Shown here one piece after another: positions 2,241 to 4,891 of a DNA stretch of 19,730 nt. Each line of letters begins with the position of its first letter. Position 1 is the first letter of the stretch. The stretch covers positions 1 to 19,730 of the forward strand of contig JBBSJT010000036.1 of NCBI GenBank assembly GCA_038257035.1, given 5' to 3'. The DNA comes from Chlamydiia bacterium. GTDB taxonomy: Bacteria; Chlamydiota; Chlamydiia; Chlamydiales; Parachlamydiaceae. Both the position numbers and the translations under genes were made by a program. The notes under the pieces were generated by a model that was not told where the DNA came from, searched no databases, and saw only the letters and a program-made list of their open reading frames with translations.

Positions 2241-2284
2241 TTTTTTCAGCACTGAGGCCACAGACTCGACTTTAGTTTTTATTT
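2241..2284 (+). repeat. Left outer inverted repeat of the cargo region (family B-like)
   Basis: 2243-2265 ttttcagcactgaggccacagac matches the reverse complement of 4868-4890 at 18/23 positions. The downstream tcgac...tttttattt is also shared. Confidence 0.6.
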
Positions 2285-2442
2285 AACGAGATATATTTTA
2301 CAATTGTTGCCTTTCAGGCTATTATATTTAACTTGCTTATTCCCAGTGCGTTGCCACTACCATTCCCCGTTTTTTTTAAGATTTTGTTATAAGAAATCTT
2401 GATTAATCACAATAGGATTCATAAATTACGGTTTTTCTTACA

Positions 2443-2456
2443 TCTCTCTCTCTCTC
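2443..2456. repeat. (TC)7 microsatellite
   Basis: tctctctctctctc read directly from the sequence. Confidence 0.85.
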
Positions 2457-2656
2457 TGTCTTCTCCGCCTTTATTCGTCAAGCACCGAACTGAATTACAG
2501 AAAAGTTACCACTCTCTGATTGTTATTTCGTCATGCCACACTTGCACAAAACCCCATGTTGGCTGCCGTAATTCTCTGTCACATGAAAACGGTTTCCAAT
2601 TTCGTTTGACGATTTTTGATTTATCGTCTGACAAATCCGTTATCTCAAGCTCAAGC

Positions 2657-2724
2657 TATCGAAATTCAAGCTATGCTGAGGGACCCTTCCCCAGGAAAAA
2701 TTCTTCAGTATAGCTTGAATTTTC
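2657..2724. repeat. ~65-bp palindromic element, copy 1
   Basis: aaattcaagctat (2662-2674) pairs with atagcttgaattt (2710-2722), and the stem extends to about 2683/2701 with G-T pairs. It is homologous to 4754-4820 in inverted orientation. Confidence 0.88.
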
Positions 2725-3047
2725 TATCCTTCTTTAAAAAAGCAGCCATGCTTTGAAAAAAAACATATCTATCAACCTATTACAGTTTAAACATAATCGT
2801 CAGCCTAACATGAGAAAGTAAATATTATTGAAAGGGTGTTGGTAACTACTATAATTTTAACCAACCCACCTTCTCATTGCACAAAAAATAGCTTACATAG
2901 TAGTTTTTAAAAATTCCTCTTTGTTTAGAGCGTCTCTTGTTGTGTGACAAATGCGTTGCATGAGATGTTAGTGGCTCAAGCAAGCGAGCCTGCAATAAGA
3001 ATTATTTTATGCTGAGATGATCTGATTTAATTCTGGAGATTTGAACA

Positions 3048-4703
3048 ATGAAAAAGGTTGTAGTATTTGGAGCAGGCGTTGCAGGATTAACCGCAGCGCA
3101 TGAACTGGCACGTCTGGGGTATAAGGTTTGCGTATATGAGGTTAATAAGGAATCTGGTGGATTTTTCCGGAGCGCTCGTAATAGCGCAGTTTCCATACCA
3201 TCAGAGTATTCATGGCATGGAATTGGCCCTTGGTATCATAATGTATTTGATATCATGAAAGATATTCCATTTGATGAAACGGGAAGTGTATATGACAAGG
3301 GCCTTTCACGACCAATAATGTTTAGTGTGCTACCTGATGAGATTGAATTAAATTGTGATGATTCCTTTCTATTTAATAAACCAAAATCTTTTAGAATGAC
3401 ATTTCTTGATAAAATCATGTTGGTGTGGGTATTACTTAAAACGTGGACTGCAAATCGTAGAACATTTGAATATTATTCACGTTTGAATGCATCAGAATAC
3501 TGGAAACCATGGTTGACAGAGAAAGGGCTCAAGACGTGGAGAGCAATATTTGGTCCTTGGATAGGTTCCGATTGGGTACGAGTCTCTCTCCACCAAGTTG
3601 GACAGTTCTTTAGAAAATGTTATATATCTGGGCCAAAGCATTTTCATAAAGCCGATTCAGAAGGACCAGCCTGGGTACATGGCTCAGGAGATGGTTGGCT
3701 TCTTCTGCGTAGTCCAAGTAATGAATGTTGGTTCAATAGATGGGTCAGCCATTTAGGTCAGCTGGGAGTTGAGTTTTTTTGGGAGCAAGCGCTTTATTCA
3801 TTTGATTTTGATGGTGAAAAAATTATCGCTGCTCACTTAGAGTCAGGGCTTCGAGTAACCGCAGACATATATGTTTTGGCCATTAATCCTTTTGCCGTAG
3901 TAGATGTTTTAAAAAGGACGCCACAGCTTGAGCAAGATGCACAGCTCCGACTATTTCATCCCTTAATACAAGATGGGCCACACACACAGGTTTCGTTTCG
4001 TATTGGTTTTGCAGAGGAAATTGCATGGCCGGTTGAGCGTACCGCTCTCATTGCCGCCGATTCCGAGTTTAATTTAACGCTGTTTGCTGTGGAGCAAGTG
4101 TGGCCATCTGATGTATCACTTGGCGCTGGTATCAAGTCATTGTGGACAGGCACTGCCTGTGTGGCTAGTATACCGGGCCGTCTTTATGGGCTGCCCTTAA
4201 CGCAATGCACTAAGGAACAATTTATTGAAGAGGTTCTGTCGCAATTACGCGATTGCCAGGGGCTTGATTTCTTGCTCCGTGAAGCTAACAATGGCAAAGG
4301 ATTAGAGCAACTTACAATGTTAAATGTTGAAGTGTGGCACGAGTGGTTATTTAGCACAGCAGGCATTAAGCCTAAACAGCCAAAATGGGTGAACACAACA
4401 AACACGGAACCCTACCTACCAAATCAGGCTACATCAATACCGAATCTCGTTCTAGCTGGAGCGCATACTAAAACAACAACAGATCTTTGGAGTATTGAAG
4501 CTGCTGTAGAAAGTGGTCGACTTGCCGTTAAGGTTATAGAGCCTAGAGTTAAGGTTATCTCTGAGTATAAGCCTTTACTCTTTAGAATTATAGGCACTAT
4601 AGACGATTACTTTTTTGTTGTTGGTGCTCCTCATCTACTCGATTGTATTTTGATTGGTGCTCTCATTGGATTGGTAGTAGGGATTTGGTTATTGTGTTTT
4701 TAA
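3048..4703 (+). CDS. FAD-dependent oxidoreductase (amine oxidase / carotenoid desaturase / HpnE-like superfamily) with C-terminal membrane anchor
   Basis: N-terminal Rossmann motif VVVFGAGVAGLTAAHEL...VYE...GG. C-terminal NLVLAGAHT...WSIEAAVESG. Hydrophobic tail ILIGALIGLVVGIWLLCF. GGAG ribosome-binding site upstream. Substrate unknown. Confidence 0.85.
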   Translation: MKKVVVFGAGVAGLTAAHELARLGYKVCVYEVNKESGGFFRSARNSAVSIPSEYSWHGIGPWYHNVFDIMKDIPFDETGSVYDKGLSRPIMFSVLPDEIELNCDDSFLFNKPKSFRMTFLDKIMLVWVLLKTWTANRRTFEYYSRLNASEYWKPWLTEKGLKTWRAIFGPWIGSDWVRVSLHQVGQFFRKCYISGPKHFHKADSEGPAWVHGSGDGWLLLRSPSNECWFNRWVSHLGQLGVEFFWEQALYSFDFDGEKIIAAHLESGLRVTADIYVLAINPFAVVDVLKRTPQLEQDAQLRLFHPLIQDGPHTQVSFRIGFAEEIAWPVERTALIAADSEFNLTLFAVEQVWPSDVSLGAGIKSLWTGTACVASIPGRLYGLPLTQCTKEQFIEEVLSQLRDCQGLDFLLREANNGKGLEQLTMLNVEVWHEWLFSTAGIKPKQPKWVNTTNTEPYLPNQATSIPNLVLAGAHTKTTTDLWSIEAAVESGRLAVKVIEPRVKVISEYKPLLFRIIGTIDDYFFVVGAPHLLDCILIGALIGLVVGIWLLCF

Positions 4704-4753
4704 TTCAATATTTAAGTTTTTGACCATTTTTATATAGGACTAGAGAACGATAT

Positions 4754-4820
4754 AAATTTAAGCTATATTGAAAGACCATTCCTCGGGGAAAGTCCTTCGG
4801 CAGAGCTTGAATTTCGATGG
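4754..4820. repeat. ~65-bp palindromic element, copy 2 (inverted relative to copy 1)
   Basis: The reverse complement of 4792-4818 matches 2658-2684 at 24/27, and that of 4754-4772 matches 2704-2722 at 17/19. The element is internally self-complementary. Confidence 0.88.
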
Positions 4821-4836
4821 TTTTGAGGTTATGTCG

Positions 4837-4891
4837 AAATAAAAAGCTGTCGACTTCGTCTCTTGAACTCTATGGCCTCTGTGGTTAAAAA
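4837..4891 (-). repeat. Right outer inverted repeat of the cargo region (family B-like)
   Basis: The minus strand reads ttttaaccacagaggccatagagttcaagagacgaagtcgacagctttttattt. It resembles 2241-2284 and the arms at 12425-12598. Confidence 0.65.

Follow-up and report, generated by a model that had tools for sequence, protein, structure and literature searches.

Nested inverted repeats around a foreign oxidoreductase gene between epmB and argS in a Chlamydiia bacterium

The first mobile insertion cassettes (MICs) reportedly derive from IS231 of Bacillus. MICs (PMC3913671, PMC4337579) are passenger genes bounded by inverted repeats, without a transposase, that are moved in trans. Two other groups of described elements, the MITEs (PMC10969869, PMC5896051) and the REP/REPIN doublets with RAYT transposases (Bertels and Rainey 2011, PMC3116915; PMC3337134; PMC3733652), offer further comparison for the repeats treated here. 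The window that we analysed is a stretch of 19,730 nucleotides from a Chlamydiia bacterium (assembly GCA_038257035.1, contig JBBSJT010000036.1). A sequence-only reading of it had seen a gene enclosed by nested inverted repeats between the convergent genes epmB and argS, and had taken paired repeats of a family called B (doublets) for landing pads or carriers of accessory genes, present in empty and loaded states, of what would be an undescribed, transposase-less capture system acting in trans. Cassettes that have inverted-repeat ends, lack a transposase and are mobilised in trans are already known as mobile insertion cassettes, and the proposed system, even if real, would not be of an undescribed kind.

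The features of the locus are collected in Table 1. The left flanking gene matches NCBIfam TIGR03821 (371.2 bits, cut-off 369.3) and, by Pfam, Radical_SAM, and the right flanking gene matches Pfam tRNA-synt_1d (2.2e-122), DALR_1 and Arg_tRNA_synt_N. As had been claimed, transposase and integrase families are absent from the 16 ORFs of the window, and no remnant genes were detected in 2240-3047 or 4704-4899 when these were compared by tblastx with the genome and with the fetched loci. The sole ORF in the spacer (2399-2713, 104 aa) has no family match in Pfam or NCBIfam, and the spacer itself has no counterpart by blastn or tblastx in the rest of the genome or among the fetched loci and no Rfam match. 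Rfam gave nothing at E<=1 in 2100-5000 and nothing at gathering score in the whole window; a terminator scan of 2100-5000 returned 0 sites, with a loop limit of 3-8 that may miss the long hairpins found here; and a distant blastn search of 2240-4893 against a plasmid collection gave no match. The promoter-like site agrees with the consensus at 11/12 hexamer positions and is one of 8 such sites in the region, a number not above the shuffle mean of 7.4.

Table 1. Positions of the features at the epmB-argS junction and of two reference family B repeats in the window.
Feature	Position	Strand	Remark
epmB (EF-P beta-lysylation radical SAM enzyme)	1235..2239	+	left flank, conserved; stop TAG 2237-2239
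Left outer arm, degenerate family B (T-run, then CACNGAG-type words)	2240..2266	+	profile match
Spacer, non-coding, (TC)n run at ~2443-2457	2267..2639		
Left copy of locus-specific inverted repeat, ~100 nt	2640..2736		contains 65-nt hairpin 2661-2723
Sigma-70-like promoter match (TTGAAA, 16 nt, TATAAT)	2828..2855	+	consensus match alone, upstream of oxidoreductase
Cargo, predicted FAD-dependent oxidoreductase, 551 aa	3048..4703	+	Pfam Amino_oxidase, NAD_binding_8
Right copy of locus-specific inverted repeat	4741..4842		contains hairpin 4754-4814
Right outer arm, degenerate family B, ACCACAGAGG sub-type	4856..4893	-	profile match 4891-4856
argS (arginyl-tRNA synthetase)	4900..6645	-	right flank, conserved, convergent with epmB; stop codon 4900-4902
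Solo family B arm	10320..10341	+	profile E 0.023; 3 nt after stop of ADH gene (9255-10316)
Canonical empty family B doublet, reference, 176 bp	12424..12599		arms E 7.2e-10, 3.9e-8

The outer inverted pair lies where the sequence-only reading had placed it, from the epmB stop to near the argS stop: 2243-2265 matches the reverse complement of 4868-4890 at 18/23 positions, and the local alignment score of the two arms, 26, was reached by 0/1000 shuffles and by 9/2000 random genomic 80-mer pairs. The left arm starts at 2240, abutting the epmB stop, and 6-9 nt separate the end of the right arm from the argS stop. The likeness of these arms to the doublet at 12425-12598, which had also been pointed out, holds by the family B profile, with the arms degenerate. 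The right arm (4891-4856, minus strand) matches with E 0.69 genome-wide and 8e-4 within the 2.75-kb region, the left arm (2240-2264, model positions 1-25) with E 67 and 0.078, respectively, and both are in register with model position 1-3. Judged by the profile, the outer arms are genuine but degenerate family B members. The right arm has 30-39-nt matches of 82-88% to arms on contigs C10, C5, C4 and C31, with its best partners on C5, C10 and C4 and those of the left arm on C79, C60 and C2; neither outer arm is the best match of the other. Mutual best match was dropped as a partner criterion, the partner ranking first in merely 4/29 real doublets. The inner extensions of the outer arms align with a score of 31, reached by 9/2000 shuffles and 6/169 other arms, and the two arms may be old partners. 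Folded alone, either arm gives a z of -0.4 to -1.4.

The second, inner pair around the oxidoreductase gene also stands as first described, 2653-2722 being complementary to 4754-4823 over 70 nt (77%). With gaps the repeat spans 2640-2736 and 4842-4741, and the two copies align with a score of 94 in inverted and 69 in direct orientation. The hairpin in the left copy has a folding energy of -34 kcal/mol (z -6.8, equalled by 0/200 shuffles), and that in the right copy one of -24 kcal/mol (z -2.3, equalled by 5/200 shuffles). A profile of the pair found no further copy in the genome at E<1, and partial look-alikes of its arms occur in two other genera (G016, 25 nt, 92%, twice; G020, 45 nt, 80%). 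The arrangement is asymmetric, 386 nt lying between B arm and inner repeat at the left end and 43 nt at the right end. A composite left arm, in which 2240-2295 plus 2640-2736 mirrors 4741-4893, was tried and rejected: a gap-tolerant alignment supports the B-arm block (20/27) and the inner-repeat blocks (64/83) alone, the intervening 43 nt aligning in three small scattered blocks, possibly by chance. A 5-nt direct repeat, GTTAT, is readable at the inner-repeat ends (2639-2643 and 4828-4832); as a target duplication it is not robust, the best alignment taking GTTAT into the repeat itself.

The product of the enclosed gene is a predicted FAD-dependent oxidoreductase of the amine-oxidase / phytoene-desaturase superfamily, with Pfam matches to Amino_oxidase (6.7e-14) and NAD_binding_8 and no NCBIfam equivalog, the best, HpnE, reaching 56.7 bits where 283 is the cut-off. 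The genome has one copy of the gene (one full-length match), and of 400 scored phylum genomes just this one (G000) has it. No ortholog was found among 40 relatives, in which matches are confined to the N-terminal FAD/NAD-binding (GxGxxG-type) residues 3-83, bar one weak stop-ridden fragment. Homologs number 1042, the best with 75% identity at full length and the nearest at 75-77% aa, and among the matches listed they fall in Desulfobulbaceae, Pirellulaceae, Gracilibacteria and others. The nearest lie on low-GC contigs with non-chlamydial neighbours, one of which, a GrpE, is 34% identical to that of this genome, and their nucleotide similarity is confined to 3031-4657 of the window, inner-type repeats being absent. 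The remark that the cargo is locally GC-richer is borne out (32/60 G+C at 4021-4080); the whole gene, at 42.1% GC, lies at the 97.8th percentile of 1364 ORFs of at least 200 aa, and its GC3 at the 79.6th percentile only. Its distribution indicates that the oxidoreductase gene is accessory, as had been proposed, horizontally acquired and foreign to the phylum.

The flanking genes are widely kept, epmB in 24/25 relatives (E<=1e-30) and argS in 25/25, and they are convergent on one contig in 15/25. Of these 15, six have a match-to-match gap of 0-57 nt, two one of 319-586 nt and seven one of 1.3-9.3 kb, and in the genomes inspected for it the cargo differs: three small unknown ORFs in G002, a methyltransferase and a pyruvyl transferase in G001, alpha/beta hydrolases in G014 and G005, and an LRR-RING protein with a DDE fragment in G003. 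Taken from these gaps and contents, the junction is ancestrally tight and variably filled. Different cargo in relatives is what the landing-pad model had foreseen, and that part of it stood; the part that did not concerns the B arms, which are absent at the borders of the other filled epmB-argS junctions, and the hot spot is therefore independent of the repeat.

Family B, of which no description for chlamydiae was found in the literature searched, has arms made of a T-run and tandem 7-nt CACNGAG words with a tail rich in purines, the whole being mirrored so that it ends in an A-run. Searching the assembly of 210 contigs with a profile built from family B arms gave 97 arms at E<=0.01, 139 at E<=10 and 172 at E<=100, compared with 0 and 4 at the last two thresholds in the locally shuffled genome. 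At short range the doublets are real units, 29/31 adjacent arm pairs with gaps of 80-800 bp being inward-facing. The reference doublet in the window has its right arm 10 nt from the umuC stop, and the solo arm is followed by a family A palindrome. Doublets lie in convergent spacers in 11/24 classifiable cases, against 256/1643 spacers overall, and several of 14 inspected doublets (including those on C143, C110, C56, C60, C12 and C3) enclose other T-run...A-run palindromes, the one on C110 with three nesting levels. By eye, the flanks of these 14 often have CG beside the T-run and A-run, which is either part of the inverted repeat or a 2-nt duplication, and no clear repeat longer than 2 nt. The family B pattern matches 64 times in this genome, 2 and 5 times in congeneric ones, and 134 times in G005, 105 in G030 and 73 in G010; the G030 doublets are uniform, with ~103 nt between starts and with variants specific to each arm. 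From this patchy abundance across the order, the family looks mobile.

Arms sit tight at stop codons, and inward pairs are not enriched at cargo-size gaps. An outward gene stop lies within 50 nt of 81/121 arms (E<=1), against 211/3000 random intergenic positions, nearly all of these stops preceding the T-run by 0-27 nt and a few reaching as much as 3 nt into it, and 104/1849 ORFs have a stop-abutting arm. The 23 adjacent arm pairs with gaps of 1.5-5 kb comprise 3 '+-', 9 '-+', 6 '++' and 5 '--', and the inward-facing share, 3/23, is below the expected quarter. Unpaired arms make up 110/172, and of the strongest unpaired ones only 8/38 are found no more than 400 nt from the end of a contig. It had been allowed beforehand that repeats too abundant as singlets would count against the landing-pad model, and singlets, placed habitually after stops, are indeed that abundant.

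The expectation that other family B pairs enclose genes was right in a few cases. The C203 doublet (717 bp) encloses DUF4160 and DUF2442 and the C60 doublet (629 bp) an HTH gene, and strong-armed pairs hold a single accessory gene between convergent genes on C4 (F-box) and C47 (HAD_SAK_2). At the C47 locus the arms sit on both convergent stops with the HAD_SAK_2 gene inside, and in the same-genus genome G001 the flanking genes are 198 nt apart, without the gene and without arms. A T-run/A-run target site was considered and rejected, the empty C47-type junction in G001 having no such site; T6+A6+ occurs 36 times (28/36 inside called ORFs) and A6+T6+ 3 times. With gene calls that are crude (ORFs of at least 100 aa, greedy choice), pairs enclosing 1-3 genes are nominally 6 against 2.27 by gene-based permutation (P=0.026), and 4 after the removal of two artefacts. 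The earlier view of the flanking as meaningful is not upheld, there being no excess in the inward pairs at 1.5-5 kb, and 4 enclosing pairs against ~2.3 expected.

A mover for such pairs was sought across the 210-contig assembly, in which transposase-type matches are few: DDE_Tnp_1 1, rve 3, DDE_3 none and Y1_Tnp 7 loci. No B-ended transposase was found among them, and no B arm lies close to the DDE and rve genes. The seven Y1_Tnp loci are bordered by other GC-rich palindromes or REPs, several beginning GTAG, which stand on either side of six loci and on one side only of the seventh, on C48; none of the loci is bracketed by B arms, and one broken copy on C7 adjoins a B arm. The six Phage_integrase matches are all on other contigs. 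All-vs-all blastp of 1849 ORFs gave 43 clusters, and the 15 largest, mostly tandem paralogues, include no transposase-like cluster. No second arm-gene-arm copy exists elsewhere in the genome, every cargo being single-copy; B arms beside oxidoreductase homologs gave 0 matches at E<=10 in 22 loci; and no target-site duplication was seen at the outer arms. One public read run, probably of the source sample, contains the stretch, on short low-depth contigs only, and yielded no joints or alternative forms; it is uninformative on excision. The proposal of a landing pad or carrier acting in trans is not supported by a second loaded copy, by arms at homologs, by a firm target duplication or by a B-ended transposase.

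What might explain why a foreign gene lies within two layers of inverted repeats at this junction? Our preferred explanation, held with modest confidence, is an ordinary horizontal insertion in a permissive junction already filled by selfish palindromic repeats, and not a gene-capture machine. Ancestrally, epmB and argS converge with hardly any spacer; 3'-3' junctions of this type accommodate inserted DNA, and unrelated genes have repeatedly filled this one in the order. A family B palindromic element would have settled at the junction first, with its T-run ends on both stops, and the inner locus-specific repeat may have arrived with it. The oxidoreductase gene, together with its own upstream region, would then have landed inside this element, whose interior would be the longest run of neutral DNA there and in which other repeat families nest too. 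The asymmetry between the two sides means that at least one further event is needed. We infer both the order, repeat first and gene second, and the passivity of the repeats; no allele with an empty doublet at the epmB-argS junction occurs among the available genomes. The C47 locus, filled here and empty in G001, suggests a parallel for the nesting. The inner repeat, unique to the locus, is more readily explained as part of a vehicle that came with the gene than as a member of a resident family of repeats.

Two solo B arms could instead have settled independently after the epmB and argS stops, before or after the gene, and face inward merely because the T-run always points at the nearest stop codon. 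The abundance of unpaired arms, few of the strongest lying near contig ends, the mix of orientations at 1.5-5 kb, the small difference between real and randomly reassigned enclosing pairs, and the different sub-types of two outer arms that are not mutual best matches all agree with such a juxtaposition. However, it calls for three events in a 0-57 nt ancestral junction where nesting needs two, it leaves the loss of both arms' partners without reason, and the inner extensions are more alike than those of most arm pairs, and we consider it unlikely. It is also rather improbable that the inner 2.2-kb unit is a non-autonomous, MIC-like cassette that brought the oxidoreductase gene in, with the B arms as bystanders. 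In favour of it, the two copies align better in inverted than in direct orientation, the pair is unique in the genome and closely encloses the promoter-like site and the gene, a direct repeat can be read at its ends, and two other genera have partial look-alikes. Against it, the closest homologs share the gene-sized segment alone, without such repeats, the GTTAT reading is not robust, neither a transposase with such ends nor another copy was found, and the hairpins might just as well have a terminator-like or regulatory role.

We give very little credence to the model from which the analysis started, in which B doublets carry accessory genes or actively receive them, as the ends of a transposase-less capture element excised or moved in trans. 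The small genes held by the C203 and C60 doublets, the single accessory genes between the C4 and C47 arms, the apparent mobility of the family and the uniform doublets of G030 speak for it; inward pairs without excess at cargo-size gaps, cargo that is always single-copy, the absence of B arms beside the homologs and at the other filled junctions, the lack of a target duplication, Y1 loci flanked by their own GC-rich REPs and DDE and rve genes away from B arms speak against it. A broader version, in which palindromic doublets of environmental chlamydiae are preferred entry points for foreign genes (fragile or recombinogenic centres subject to hairpin or cruciform breakage and capture) or passenger-carrying non-autonomous elements, strikes us as doubtful. 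On the same doubtful reading small accessory genes, such as toxin-antitoxin-like pairs, F-box effectors and this oxidoreductase, would accumulate inside doublets, and the two nested inverted-repeat layers at this locus would have been split by one insertion.

Seen as an insertion into a repeat-filled junction, the locus would be a clean example of an accessory gene entering a compact intracellular genome, between convergent essential genes, in repeat-neutralised DNA. It also draws attention to an abundant repeat family whose T-runs and tandem 7-nt words are mirrored, nested like Russian dolls and placed 0-27 nt after stops. If it were true that doublets attract or carry genes, they would give new genes a way into a phylum regarded as poor in mobile elements. 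The proximity of 8 of the 38 strongest solo arms to contig ends illustrates the practical cost of such repeats in an assembly of this fragmentation.

How, then, does the locus compare with known systems? The core motif of integron attC sites is of the GTTRRRY type, and the locus does not resemble an integron cassette, with no integrase in the window and no GTTRRRY-type core visible at the palindrome ends. Nor is it a tRNA genomic island, there being no tRNA or tmRNA (Rfam) in 2100-5000 or the window and no integrase. With MITEs, family B shares a non-coding, multi-copy, intergenic nature, terminal inverted repeats, a size of mostly 81-717 bp and, in G030, uniformity of size; it differs in having no definable target-site duplication and no same-ended parent insertion sequence in the assembly, in its highly variable interiors of nested palindromes, and in arms that are tandem 7-nt words behind a T-run. 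Like REPINs, family B forms doublets of inverted units that make long hairpins and are placed behind genes, with a preference for convergent spacers, alongside many solo units, and this genome also has RAYT-like Y1 transposases. Unlike in REPINs, the B arm is not a small GC-rich palindrome, is without self-complementarity and carries no GTAG or CGTC tag, and the seven Y1 loci are flanked by other GC-rich REPs, none being bracketed by B arms. The ends of known MICs match a transposase-bearing element and come with target duplications and several insertion sites, none of which is seen here; in its inverted ends, its passenger gene and its lack of a transposase, however, the locus formally fits the MIC concept in both its outer and its inner layer.

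How did an oxidoreductase gene come to lie within two nested inverted repeats between the convergent genes epmB and argS? The sequence-only reading called it an accessory gene, and this is borne out: from the distribution of its homologs it is foreign to the phylum, and at E<=1e-40 it is present in a single genome, the one under study (G000), of 400 scored phylum genomes, one further genome being unscored. Searches of 40 relatives gave no match beyond residues 3-83 (FAD/NAD-binding, GxGxxG-type), with the sole exception of one weak, stop-ridden fragment; solved structures match the N-terminal nucleotide-binding stretch only, and the protein has no NCBIfam equivalog. 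More than 1000 homologs are 55-77% identical, from named sources that include Desulfobulbaceae, Pirellulaceae, Gracilibacteria and Bdellovibrionales. The three closest (75-77% at the amino acid level) are encoded on low-GC contigs among non-chlamydial neighbours, their nucleotide similarity is confined to window positions 3031-4657, and their loci have neither family B arms nor the inner repeat. The gene is GC-richer, as previously noticed (97.8th percentile of the genome), but its third-position GC is ordinary (79.6th percentile), and therefore the transfer was either not recent or from a low-GC donor. The window is one whole contig (C36) of a 2.37 Mb assembly (210 contigs, 36% GC) that also encodes three TLC nucleotide transporters and F-box and SET-domain genes; its OmcB-like match is weak, at 31.4 bits below the cut-off of 34.1.

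epmB and argS are convergent on one contig in 15 of 25 relatives. Six of these (G034, G025, G013, G010, G029 and G011) leave 0-57 nt between the two genes, two leave 319 and 586 nt, and the other seven 1.3-9.3 kb. Fillings include three small paralogous ORFs of no known family in G002, a methyltransferase and a pyruvyl transferase in G001, and alpha/beta hydrolases in both G014 and G005; in G003 the junction has an LRR-RING protein next to a fragment of a DDE transposase. The junction is a recurrent insertion point, or hot spot, across the order. A different cargo in related genomes had been named beforehand as support for the model, and it is seen; neither same-genus junction (G001, G002) has a B arm. 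In G005, a palindrome whose outer layer consists of CGCAAAG words and whose nested layer consists of CACTGAG words lies next to the stop of epmB; it adjoins the cargo and does not enclose it.

The family B arm is a non-coding unit with the profile consensus of a T-run, then AACACAGAGATCACAGAGG, then a purine-rich tail. Profile searches find approximately 100-170 arms in G000, with 139 matches in the real genome versus 0 in a locally shuffled one at E<=10, and 172 versus 4 at E<=100. The doublet of two inward-facing arms is a real unit, because 29 of 31 adjacent arm pairs 80-800 bp apart face inward. Doublet length spreads continuously from 81 to 717 bp because the interiors hold other, nested palindromic elements, which in the 14 doublets inspected are of like build with different 7-nt words (CGCAAAG, ACGAAGA, CAGTGAG, CAGGAT), open with a T-run, close with an A-run and nest up to three deep. 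By crude ORF calls (1849 ORFs of at least 100 aa), 81 of 121 arms taken at E<=1 are within 50 nt, and 51 within 15 nt, of the stop of a gene directed toward the arm, against 211 of 3000 random intergenic positions with such a stop within 50 nt; on the same calls, convergent spacers hold 11 of 24 classifiable doublets while making up 256 of 1643 spacers, and divergent spacers hold only one of the 24. The distance from stop to T-run is 0-27 nt for nearly all, a few stops lying up to 3 nt inside the T-run.

A second nested palindromic family, with three copies in the window, has a T-run followed by CGCGAAG-type words, mirrored; its arms are complementary between copies (77 nt at 96%, 73 nt at 88%), and it is presumably the family A named previously. 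A 9-nt-period tandem array, AAGGGCAAA / AAGGACAAA, with an inverted partner 80 nt away, belongs to a further word-palindrome family. All of these families run from T-run to A-run, the opposite of a bidirectional terminator, and G000 has 36 T6+A6+ runs versus three A6+T6+.

At the oxidoreductase locus, all the features previously described are present. The outer pair is complementary at 18 of 23 positions, as claimed; none of 1000 shuffles reached its alignment score of 26, whereas 9 of 2000 random pairs of genomic sequence did. Its arms are degenerate members of family B: both are in register in the profile, yet their matches are weak (right arm, E of 0.69 genome-wide and 8e-4 within the region; left arm, 67 and 0.078). 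The right arm resembles arms on contigs C10, C5, C4 and C31 (30-39 nt, 82-88% identity). The outer arms are not mutual best matches, a trait shared by most real doublets and hence not decisive. The first inner hairpin carries in its right half a motif, AGCTTGAATTTTCTATC, with two further occurrences on contig C8 of G016 (L049; 92% over 25 nt), located 60-90 nt ahead of a tandem pair of paralogous genes, and a partial one on C1 of G020 (L048). The motif may serve regulation and not mark the end of a mobile unit.

Positions of features in the window and of comparable repeat pairs elsewhere
Feature	Location	Strand	Details
epmB	window 1235-2239		TIGR03821, 371.2 bits vs cut-off 369.3
Outer arms	window 2240-2266; 4856-4893	+; -	
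Inner inverted repeat	window 2640-2736; 4842-4741		~100 nt
AGCTTGAATTTTCTATC motif	window 2710-2727		
FAD oxidoreductase	window 3048-4703	+	amine-oxidase superfamily, 551 aa; between epmB and argS
argS	window 4900-6645	-	
Second palindromic family	window 17-290; 6708-7054; 10342-10590		three copies
SET-domain protein	window 10595-11383	-	eukaryote-like methyltransferase fold
umuD-umuC	window 12610-14450	-	
9-nt-period array	window 18068-18227		between alpha/beta hydrolase and GH94 genes
Loaded pair (L054)	C203 127-843		717 bp; intact DUF4160 and DUF2442 genes
Loaded pair (L053)	C60 4187-4815		629 bp; intact HTH gene (HigA-like), 69 aa
Loaded pair	C4 23467-24675		1209 bp; F-box gene between convergent genes
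Loaded pair	C47 8119-9238		1120 bp; HAD_SAK_2 gene between convergent genes
Loaded pair	C27 4068-6206		2139 bp; OppC-like permease; arms weak
G030 doublets, examples	C4:12663-12787; C51:1759-1883; C51:3310-3434		

We lean toward sequential nesting, the gene lying within a prior repeat cluster at the junction. A palindromic repeat cluster would have filled the tight space between epmB and argS, the oxidoreductase gene would have landed later within it, and the left side, 343 nt longer than the right, would owe its length to one or more additional insertions or deletions. That two solo family B arms arrived independently at epmB and argS seems unlikely, though it is the strongest of the alternatives. 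Arms aim their T-run at the nearest stop, so that DNA between convergent arm-bearing genes looks enclosed, and adjacent pairs 1.5-5 kb apart comprise three inward (this locus included), nine outward and 11 tandem. The refutation test set beforehand, singlets so abundant that such flanking is expected by chance, goes against the capture model, unpaired arms being abundant (110 of 172; only eight of the 38 strongest unpaired ones are as near as 400 nt to a contig end). On the other side, the inner extensions of the two outer arms are unusually alike (score equalled by 9 of 2000 shuffles and 6 of 169 other arms), which weakly supports an old partnership. The inner 2.2-kb unit as vehicle of the gene is a more doubtful proposition. 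Its two ends do form a true inverted repeat, as first described (score 94 inverted versus 69 direct), with a hairpin inside both copies, and a genome search found no further copy anywhere in G000.

Least probable is a carrier mobilised in trans. When the 104 arm-bearing ORFs were reassigned at random 2000 times, pairs enclosing one to three ORFs numbered 2.27, compared with 6 in the real genome (P=0.026). Two of these 6 are discounted as artefacts, their right arm already being paired with another arm, and four remain. The genes within doublets are real, few, and selfish or accessory in kind; doublets may attract genes, or their interiors may be the only neutral DNA available. In G001, 198 nt separate the two genes that flank the C47 pair, and both the cargo and the arms are absent. 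Against trans mobilisation, none of the mobility signatures tested was positive: G000 has no second copy of the arm-gene-arm unit, and the locus has no robust target duplication. No mobilising enzyme for family B was found among the Y1, DDE_Tnp_1 and rve matches of G000, and those to the latter two are not near B arms. Of seven Y1 transposase loci (~150 aa, IS200/RAYT-like, two broken; C29, C119, C105, C7, C25, C48 and C68), six have GC-rich palindromes of their own (REPs), several of which start GTAG, to the left and to the right, and C48 has them on one side only; in G000, several classical REP/RAYT systems are thus present alongside the word palindromes with T-runs. The sequence-only reading is partly supported, the gene being accessory and the junction a hot spot, whereas an active transposase-less capture system is unsupported.

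Family B is patchily distributed across the order. In a scan of 41 genomes, a relaxed pattern that tolerates one mismatch matched 64 times in G000, 134 in G005, 105 in G030, 73 in G010 and 43 in G031 (G030 and G031 each from another family of the order), and two and five times in the same-genus G001 and G002; 21 of the 41 had no match, and a reversed-pattern control gave at most one per genome. G030 holds approximately 50 near-identical doublets of uniform size, ~103 nt from start to start, whose left and right arms differ consistently as arm-specific variants. They look like copies of a master element that was recently active.

Literature searches, which took in the PVC-superphylum passages of PMC3733652, yielded no account of such repeats in chlamydiae. 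Family B behaves like MITEs, but neither a parent element nor a target duplication was found for it; it also behaves like REPINs, but its arms are not REP-like palindromes and do not flank a RAYT gene. The trans-mobilised carrier had been put forward as a candidate for an undescribed system, but it corresponds to mobile insertion cassettes, an existing concept (PMC3913671, PMC4337579).
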